Shown: piece by piece, positions 42,094-42,237 of the stretch | Position numbering within the stretch: the stretch's first letter is position 1 | Layout of the letters: each line of letters starts with the position of its first letter | UHGV virus genome: UHGV-0311442 | Length of the DNA stretch: 64,000 nucleotides | Strand: one strand, 5' to 3' | Origin: a virus | Made by a program: the position numbers and the translations under genes | Notes under the pieces: generated by a model | Database searches by the model: none | Seen by the model: the letters and a program-made list of their open reading frames with translations, nothing else | What the model was told of the DNA's origin: nothing

Positions 42094-42237
42094 TTAACCA
42101 CGGCCAGTGCACTGTGCAACGGAATTACCGTTGTCGATGCAAGTGTCGTAGCCTTTGTCGATGTCCAGGTACAGGCAACCCAGAACAACAGCGATAACAA
42201 CAGCGAAGATAGCTTTTTTGTGTTTTACAGAAATCAT
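42094..42237 (-). CDS. Candidate small lipoprotein (47 aa)
   Basis: Not in ORF track (<60 aa); GGAG 8 nt upstream; MISVKHKKAIFAVVIAVVLG-C has n-region, h-region and a lipobox-like VLGC; promoter-like motif upstream, terminator downstream. Confidence 0.45.
   Translation of the reverse strand: MISVKHKKAIFAVVIAVVLGCLYLDIDKGYDTCIDNGNSVAQCTGRG

Follow-up and report, generated by a model that had tools for sequence, protein, structure and literature searches.

Does the short open reading frame (ORF) at 42094-42237 on the minus strand of the viral genome UHGV-0311442 encode a real protein, and what could so small a product do during infection? We addressed this question in a 64,000-nt stretch of that genome (hereafter, the window). 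An original prediction, made from the letters of the window, had proposed an unannotated small lipoprotein in its own promoter-to-terminator unit, acting in superinfection exclusion or as an outer-membrane spanin component. Judged by sequence comparison, the 47-codon ORF is a genuine conserved jumbo-phage gene that belongs to a known but uncharacterised family, that of gp66 of phage SPN3US. In the fullest account, the gene would be expressed early and at a high level, and its product would be a periplasm-facing, membrane-tethered micro-protein that acts as an envelope effector; our confidence in this account as a whole is evenly balanced against our doubt.

The ORF and the SPN3US gp66 family

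The peptide matched the hidden Markov model of PHROG 8574 (‘unknown function’) over its full length (E 3.4e-23, with residues 1-47 aligned to positions 1-47 of the 47-position profile). Annotated homologues were present at the same genome position in SPN3US (SPN3US_0066; gp66, YP_009153360.1) and in Erwinia phage ChrisDB (gp82), a third was read from the ORF list of phiEaH2, and further family members are named ASESINO_84 and KWAN_81. A profile built from hand-collected homologues, which was needed to recover the family, retrieved 32 further 90%-identity clusters of 45-51 amino acids (aa), corresponding to 33 distinct variants in all. The word-indexed single-sequence protein search returned one 98% identical protein only, while an exhaustive phmmer search against 1.8 billion representatives returned family members, one 381-aa protein (P0033, E 9e-4) and nothing else. 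Searches of Pfam, NCBIfam, PADLOC and PDB sequences with the peptide gave nothing meaningful, and matches to CRF-receptor and AimP families (AimP family, E 0.11) were set aside as chance. The full-length PHROG match, the 33 distinct homologues of 45-51 aa and the extreme codon usage described below indicate a real, translated gene rather than a chance ORF. The gene is thus a member of an existing hypothetical-protein family and not a new kind of element; ‘unannotated’ was correct only with respect to the 60-aa cut-off behind the original prediction, as GenBank annotates homologues such as SPN3US_0066 as hypothetical proteins.

The expression unit had all the elements predicted for it. The ORF and its peptide were identical to those quoted, the strand being minus, with the start codon ATG at 42237 and the stop codon TAA at 42096-42094. 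The GGAG placed 8 nt upstream is equivalent to AGGAG at 42249-42245 with a 7-nt spacer, the promoter-like motif was present at 42310-42284 with its 3' end 47 nt before the ATG, and a hairpin followed by a T-run lies 8 nt downstream of the stop. The terminator stem-loop (42086-42071, followed by CTTAATTTTTTT) had a folding energy of -11.6 kcal/mol (z -2.6), was base-for-base conserved in the related loci L003, L004 and L006, and had a similar UUCG counterpart behind the Huxley-type homologue (L018). The features of the unit, all on the minus strand, are as follows.

42441..42468, minus: hairpin terminator of the upstream gene (a 268-aa SPN3US gp65 homologue), forming the upstream edge of the unit; 12-bp stem with 6 GC pairs and a T-rich tail, scoring on both strands
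42284..42310, minus: motif TTTCAGATATATATTACCTAGGTGAGA of an early-type (virion RNA polymerase) promoter, with an A-rich stretch upstream; from motif scans and published consensi
42294..42301, minus: -10-like core TATATTAC of the promoter motif, the same sequence as PMC7058600 gives for the phiKZ early-promoter core
42238..42285, minus: putative 5' untranslated region (UTR) of ~48 nt, opening with a weak GAGU...ACUC hairpin; start site inferred
42245..42249, minus: Shine-Dalgarno sequence AGGAG, 7 nt from the ATG, read from the sequence
42094..42237, minus: coding sequence MISVKHKKAIFAVVIAVVLGCLYLDIDKGYDTCIDNGNSVAQCTGRG, 47 aa plus stop, member of the PHROG 8574/SPN3US gp66 family
42057..42086, minus: intrinsic terminator, stem-loop GGCACC-UUCG-GGUGCC plus CTTAATTTTTTTAT, from hairpin search and folding

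The gene resembles SPN3US gp66 in its full-length homology, 45-51 aa layout, C-terminal motif, genome position and upstream early motif. In SPN3US and most relatives, however, it heads or sits inside a longer operon, whereas here it stands alone. Its own terminator was found only in the window's clade and in the Huxley type; elsewhere, the stop codon overlaps the next start (TAATG).

Sequence similarity places the window among the phiKZ-like jumbo phages, in the SPN3US/Erwinia group with Erwinia Machinavirus/Asesino: the product of a neighbouring gene, 439 aa long, shares 66-69% identity with ‘virion structural protein 7’ of SPN3US and the Erwinia phages Asesino and phiEaH2, and genes for a DnaB-like helicase and a major capsid protein of the phiKZ type lie close by. 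Phages of this type carry their own RNA polymerases, and the best-known members build a phage nucleus. In a megablast search of a 2.1-kb region, no close DNA relative was found among 50,697 phage records, with only 40-100 nt of the promoter motif matching, and the same or a sister phage was represented in four IMG/VR contigs and one Logan contig.

Comparison with the sister phage, whose flanking genes are ~78% identical, revealed an island of 95-100% identity (42300 to 42060) that opens at the promoter core and closes with the terminator; its edges are sharp, and identity is 55-85% on both flanks (window vs L006/L003). Within the island, the ORF carried three synonymous differences only, and the 5' UTR was almost invariant. 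In our view, the island arose either because expression signals and codons are under selection or because the cassette was exchanged recently. The same conservation, which extends to synonymous sites across the whole unit, could also be expected of a non-coding RNA or regulatory element crossed by a chance ORF, as random ORFs of such length are frequent; alternatively, the true gene could be the opposite-strand 57-aa ORF. Both versions appear very improbable to us, given that the frame, length and C-terminal motif are kept in distant homologues at 43-56% identity, that the fraction of optimal codons is 0.96 against 0.39 for the antisense ORF, and that the Shine-Dalgarno sequence is strong. The island transcript had no unusual fold (z -1.07) and matched no Rfam family, on which grounds an RNA-level function was rejected, and the antisense ORF was excluded as the gene by its codon usage and context.

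The early-type promoter and codon usage

A 27-nt scan of the window recovered 5-6 copies of the upstream motif, all on the minus (coding) strand, and the copies inspected in the sequence were intergenic and lay 40-55 nt upstream of a Shine-Dalgarno sequence and ATG. The 17-nt motif core gave 3 matches at ≤3 mismatches against 0.06 expected, whereas TATATTAC alone was not enriched in the window (2 matches vs 2.3 expected), so that the enrichment concerns only the longer motif. Near-identical motifs (39-46 nt, 91-97%) were found in >40 SPN3US-like and Erwinia jumbo phages, with copies at several loci in related phages, and in each of the nine loci checked a near-perfect same-strand copy preceded the small gene by 48 nt to 2.3 kb.

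The published early-promoter consensi are TATATTAC for phiKZ, ...TTTRARR_BTATATTACDWHDGTG for 201phi2-1 and ...TTTCARRYAKATATTATYWAAGTG for OBP and N1M2 (PMC7058600 Table 2). The motif at 42310-42284 fits them almost base for base, with an AT-rich TATATTAC-like element, TTTCA upstream and GTG downstream. Such AT-rich motifs are centred near -10 and mark operons of the virion RNA polymerase (PMC7598289, PMC8244752, PMC11512511); the start of the 5' UTR was placed from this position. Early transcription of the gene, presumably by the virion RNA polymerase, thus has good support by analogy with these phages, although literature searches retrieved no transcriptome of an SPN3US-like phage.

Most early-motif copies directly precede a 4-9 bp hairpin starting at GAGA(G/T), as observed on the minus strand at 42281-42290, 14745-14765, 50515-50540 and 9440-9455, and in the related loci L001, L002, L007, L015 and L021. 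The stems vary between copies (AGAGTT/AACTCT, AGATTAC/GTAATCT and GATAGA/TCTATC). This pattern suggests a conserved structure at the 5' end of early transcripts, with modest individual z-scores of -0.2 to -4.0.

Codon usage set the gene apart from the rest of the window. With the optimal codons of E. coli/Salmonella, a set that may not be that of the host and under which the capsid gene also scores high, 44 of its 46 scorable codons were optimal (0.957), ranking first among 68 window genes. The other 67 genes had a mean optimal fraction of 0.50 +/- 0.08, and the next highest values were those of the major capsid protein (0.84) and the internal head protein (0.79). The same peptide would be expected to contain 23.4 +/- 3.2 optimal codons under ordinary-gene codon usage and 36.3 +/- 2.6 under capsid/internal-head codon usage (P about 0.001). 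The optimal fraction also exceeded the local background in homologues from eight further lineages (0.70-0.89 vs 0.52-0.58). The codon bias is strong evidence of translation, and it points, indirectly, to a high abundance of the product.

The C-terminal module and the proposed membrane tether

Three parts of the protein are encoded on the minus strand as follows.

42178..42237, minus: codons 1-20, basic n-region (K5, K7, K8) and a 12-residue hydrophobic stretch, a signal peptide or the start of a transmembrane (TM) anchor; the charges predict an N-in/C-out orientation
42175..42177, minus: codon TGC of Cys21 in VLG-C context, candidate lipidation site that passed a permissive pattern and failed the strict lipobox
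42097..42150, minus: codons 30-47, module Y-x-x-C33-x-x-N-G-N-S-x-x-x-C43-T-G-R-G, predicted from alignment and AlphaFold2 to form helix-turn-short helix, with a putative C33-C43 disulfide

The C-terminal module was the most conserved part of the family. The protein ends, here as in its homologues, in the motif C-x2-NG-x-S-x3-C-TGR[GS]; C33, G37, S39, C43, T44, G45 and R46 were invariant in 33 sequences, and Y30, N36 and G47 were nearly so. The mean segment identity was 0.74 for the last 18 residues and 0.31-0.42 for the N-terminal part. The AlphaFold2 model (predicted local distance difference test, pLDDT, 86.7) consisted of a helix at residues 4-35, a turn at 36-39 (N36-S39) and a short helix at 40-44. 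A C33-C43 disulfide would probably staple the module, and with either of the tethers discussed below the resulting hairpin would be held at the membrane surface, facing the periplasm. In a Foldseek search, no PDB entry matched the model at an E-value below 4, and thionin/toxin helical hairpins appeared as noise only.

The metagenomic 381-aa protein P0033 carries four tandem repeats of the form aY-x-x-C-I-G-N-G-x-S-x-x-Q-C behind an N-terminal signal/membrane region; these resemble the gp66 C-terminal module, and a Pfam thionin match to the protein was sub-threshold. P0033 is a possible analogue rather than homologue of the gp66 family, and the likeness could reflect a shared cystine-stapled hairpin module or convergence.

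The signal-peptide layout on which the lipoprotein proposal was built was indeed present, with K5/K7/K8, the 12-residue hydrophobic stretch, VLG-C21 and the two further Cys residues C33 and C43. The step from this layout to a lipoprotein held only in part. VLGC matched the permissive PROSITE-type rule [LIVMFWSTAG]2-[LIVMFYSTAGCQ]-[AGS]-C, applied as our own PS00013-like regular expression, which also demands K/R near the N-terminus, six uncharged residues and Cys at 15-35; the UniRef name of the Kwan homologue is ‘Lipoprotein’, and non-canonical lipoboxes such as AWAC are functional in phage proteins (PMC6139136). The consensus lipobox is [LVI][ASTVI][GAS]C (PMC6139136), from which VLGC departs by Leu at -2, and none of the 16 Cys-bearing family members contained it. 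The remaining 17 of the 33 variants, including SPN3US gp66 and Asesino/phiEaH2, had V, S, A, T, I, L or W in place of the lipobox-column Cys, so lipidation cannot be an essential feature of the family, and the AlphaFold2 helix ran unbroken through the would-be cleavage site.

These observations bear on how the product would be held in the membrane. Across the family, the n-region is K-rich and the C-terminal part acidic or neutral with the conserved Cys pair, and this charge distribution, read by the positive-inside rule, suggests an N-in/C-out topology. In every member, the would-be cleavage site lies inside an uncharged run of 13-22 residues (16-19 where the Cys is present); in most members, this run could accommodate a TM helix. 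The protein could accordingly be a bitopic N-in/C-out inner-membrane micro-protein that is neither lipidated nor cleaved, Cys21 being a freely toggling interfacial residue, a substantial possibility that we place somewhat short of even. It would account not only for the uncharged run, the missing Cys, the lack of a canonical lipobox in any member and the continuous helix over residues 4-35, but also for the fair conservation of the n-region motif H-K-[RK]-A-I, as a signal peptide that is discarded would not be expected to keep one, and for the switching of the Cys between close relatives (window and Huxley-type, P0030 and P0031, and P0016 and Asesino-type sequences). In the window's clade, however, the uncharged run has only 16 residues and is closely followed by D25, D27 and K28; Lgt recognises a Cys that follows G/A where a signal-like helix ends on the periplasmic side, non-canonical lipoboxes being functional; and three periplasmic Cys residues would risk mis-pairing unless one were blocked, a third free Cys being awkward in a way that would favour lipidation. 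Cleavage by signal peptidase I, freeing a ~27-aa periplasmic peptide or, in a variant, one released at lysis as a signal or decoy, is improbable in our assessment. The -1 residue is small (A/G/S) in 23/32 homologues and -3 is permissive in all (e.g., AFA before V, AFG before S and ALA before C), and high abundance would suit a stoichiometric soluble ligand; yet no polar c-region or helix breaker precedes the site, hydrophobicity extends beyond it in most members, the +1 Cys in its lipobox-like context would here divert the precursor to the lipoprotein pathway, and the match to the AimP family was noise. For the tether itself, the sequence leaves lipid on Cys21 and an uncleaved helix about evenly matched, with a slight lean towards the lipid anchor in this clade because the uncharged run is only 16 residues long and acidic residues soon follow the Cys.

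Candidate functions and genomic setting

Taken together, the preferred account would run as follows. The gene would be transcribed from its phiKZ-type early promoter, presumably by virion-delivered RNA polymerase, and the short mRNA, with its strong ribosome-binding site and own terminator, would probably be translated very efficiently. The basic N-terminus and hydrophobic stretch would insert the product into the inner membrane, N-in/C-out, so as to display the 18-residue C-terminal module at the periplasmic face, tethered either by lipid on the non-canonical VLGC Cys21 or by the uncleaved helix; if Cys21 is lipidated, the Leu at +2 would imply sorting to the outer membrane. Such an abundant early envelope effector would most likely close the envelope to further infection or condition it in some other way, much as T5 Llp or T4 Imm/Sp do.

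Superinfection exclusion by the product, as the original prediction had it, would be plausible on this analysis; the broad reading as an early envelope effector or exclusion protein is, in our estimate, possible but clearly less likely than not. Apart from the lipobox, helix and codon-set points given above, three findings weigh against the preferred account as a whole. The known exclusion, spanin, holin and defence families (Llp, Cor, Imm and Sp among them) showed no similarity in PHROGs, Pfam, NCBIfam, PADLOC and PDB sequences. The receptor of SPN3US is the flagella (PMC11428620), so that a simple Llp-style outer-membrane receptor plug is not obviously transferable, and exclusion by this product would have to work by something other than receptor plugging. 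Literature searches found nothing specific on gp66, which goes without mention in the SPN3US papers searched. They also returned nothing specific on jumbo-phage exclusion lipoproteins and nothing on post-entry envelope effects of phiKZ-like jumbo phages.

Several known systems share parts of the design. T5 Llp and Cor-type lipoproteins, which block receptors, share with the predicted product a small size, an envelope location before lysis, an N-terminus of the lipobox type and two internal Cys residues, features that would suit an early role at the envelope; they differ in the lack of any sequence or profile similarity, in that cleavage here would leave a mature part of just 27 aa, behind a non-canonical, non-conserved lipobox, and in that the only known receptor of a relative (SPN3US) is a flagellum rather than an outer-membrane transporter. 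T4 Imm and Sp, early envelope proteins, act on a superinfecting phage by blocking its tail lysozyme or the entry of its DNA. They have the early expression and membrane/periplasmic location that are predicted for the product considered here and, should its tether be a TM helix, would be its nearest counterparts in function, although there is no homology and sizes and folds differ. The enterobacterial Lpp and the entericidins EcnA/EcnB, with precursors of ~40-80 aa, are comparable as very small mature lipopeptides, and Lpp also for its extreme expression and biased codons; unlike the phage gene, they are host-encoded and have canonical lipoboxes, and there is no homology.

The spanin proposal did not withstand comparison. 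As the o-spanin of a two-component lysis spanin, the product would share small size, a lipoprotein-like N-terminal signal with a lipobox-like Cys, and two further periplasmic Cys residues with many o-spanins, lambda Rz1 among them, and it had a weak PHROG match to an Rz-like spanin family (E 0.042). That match, however, covers the hydrophobic segment only and is to an i-spanin family; no gene resembling an i-spanin lies within, across or beside the ORF, and TM segments are absent from the 268-aa and 271-aa proteins on its flanks; the protein is not proline-rich; the lipid-acceptor Cys is missing in half of the family; and an early-type promoter with extreme-expression signatures would be lethal for a lysis protein. 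We therefore reject the o-spanin reading as very unlikely. A lysis-timing regulator, such as an antiholin like T4 RI or another holin modulator, fares little better and is also improbable: early expression, the signal-anchor-like N-terminus and the short periplasmic domain recall T4 RI, and the phiEaH2 early operon includes two paralogous 81-aa hydrophobic proteins that appear by eye to have two TM segments, whereas no similarity to RI or holin families was detected, no holin was identified nearby, and extreme codon optimisation is unexpected for a regulator.

Synteny agreed with the assignment to the gp66 family, the gene lying downstream of gp64/gp65 homologues and upstream of a gp70 homologue and the DnaB-like helicase; homologues of gp67-69 were searched for in the window and not found. 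The downstream neighbour is as follows.

41224-42039, minus: 271-aa protein, SPN3US gp70 homologue, with a C-terminal CxxC...CxxC zinc-ribbon-like motif (sub-threshold Pfam matches)

SPN3US gp70 is reported to be both non-virion and essential (PMC5105663). The sequence between the terminator and the 271-aa gene contained no additional copy of the early-type motif, and some read-through into that gene is therefore likely. Between the gp70 homologue and the helicase (40358-41147, minus), there are three tandem small basic ORFs (70, 56 and 40 aa), of which the 70-aa and 56-aa ORFs are related by eye, with scattered hairpin terminator-like sites; this segment is rearranged between the window and its closest relatives. 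The hairpins at 41191-41218 and 42441-42468 (12-bp stems) score as terminators on both strands, and all flanking genes are on the minus strand. The two 81-aa proteins of the phiEaH2 operon that contains the gp66 homologue (L007 5048-5293 and 6020-6265) had no counterpart in the window. Elsewhere in the window, two adjacent minus-strand genes (5088-5288 and 5285-5494) encode 66- and 69-aa proteins that appear by eye to be paralogues, each with an N-terminal hydrophobic segment and an ‘LY(Q/R)(D/E)C(I/M)...C’ pair and neither with a PHROG match; they may be further small envelope proteins.

For the biology of these phages, most work on phiKZ-like (nucleus-forming) jumbo phages concerns cytoplasmic compartments, and this gene, with 47 codons and a single mutable Cys, is a cheap and well-defined candidate for an envelope function. 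Carried furthest, to a point that we consider unlikely, the gp66 family would represent the first envelope-acting early effector of nucleus-forming jumbo phages, a massively made, tethered peptide of 27-47 aa that shuts the envelope to further entry within minutes, by jamming a periplasm-spanning machine (for example the flagellar motor, which SPN3US requires as its receptor) or by keeping a second injection vesicle from forming, and whose tether would have switched repeatedly between a TM helix and a lipid anchor. Here a phiKZ-type early promoter coincides with a codon bias stronger than that of any other gene in the 64-kb window, and an annotation cut-off of 60 aa conceals a gene whose expression may be among the highest in this part of the genome. 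What had not been expected was this codon bias, together with the early promoter and the repeated Cys switching. With a lipobox-like Cys appearing and disappearing on a constant scaffold, the family provides a natural series in which the ease of converting a small membrane protein into a lipoprotein can be tested.

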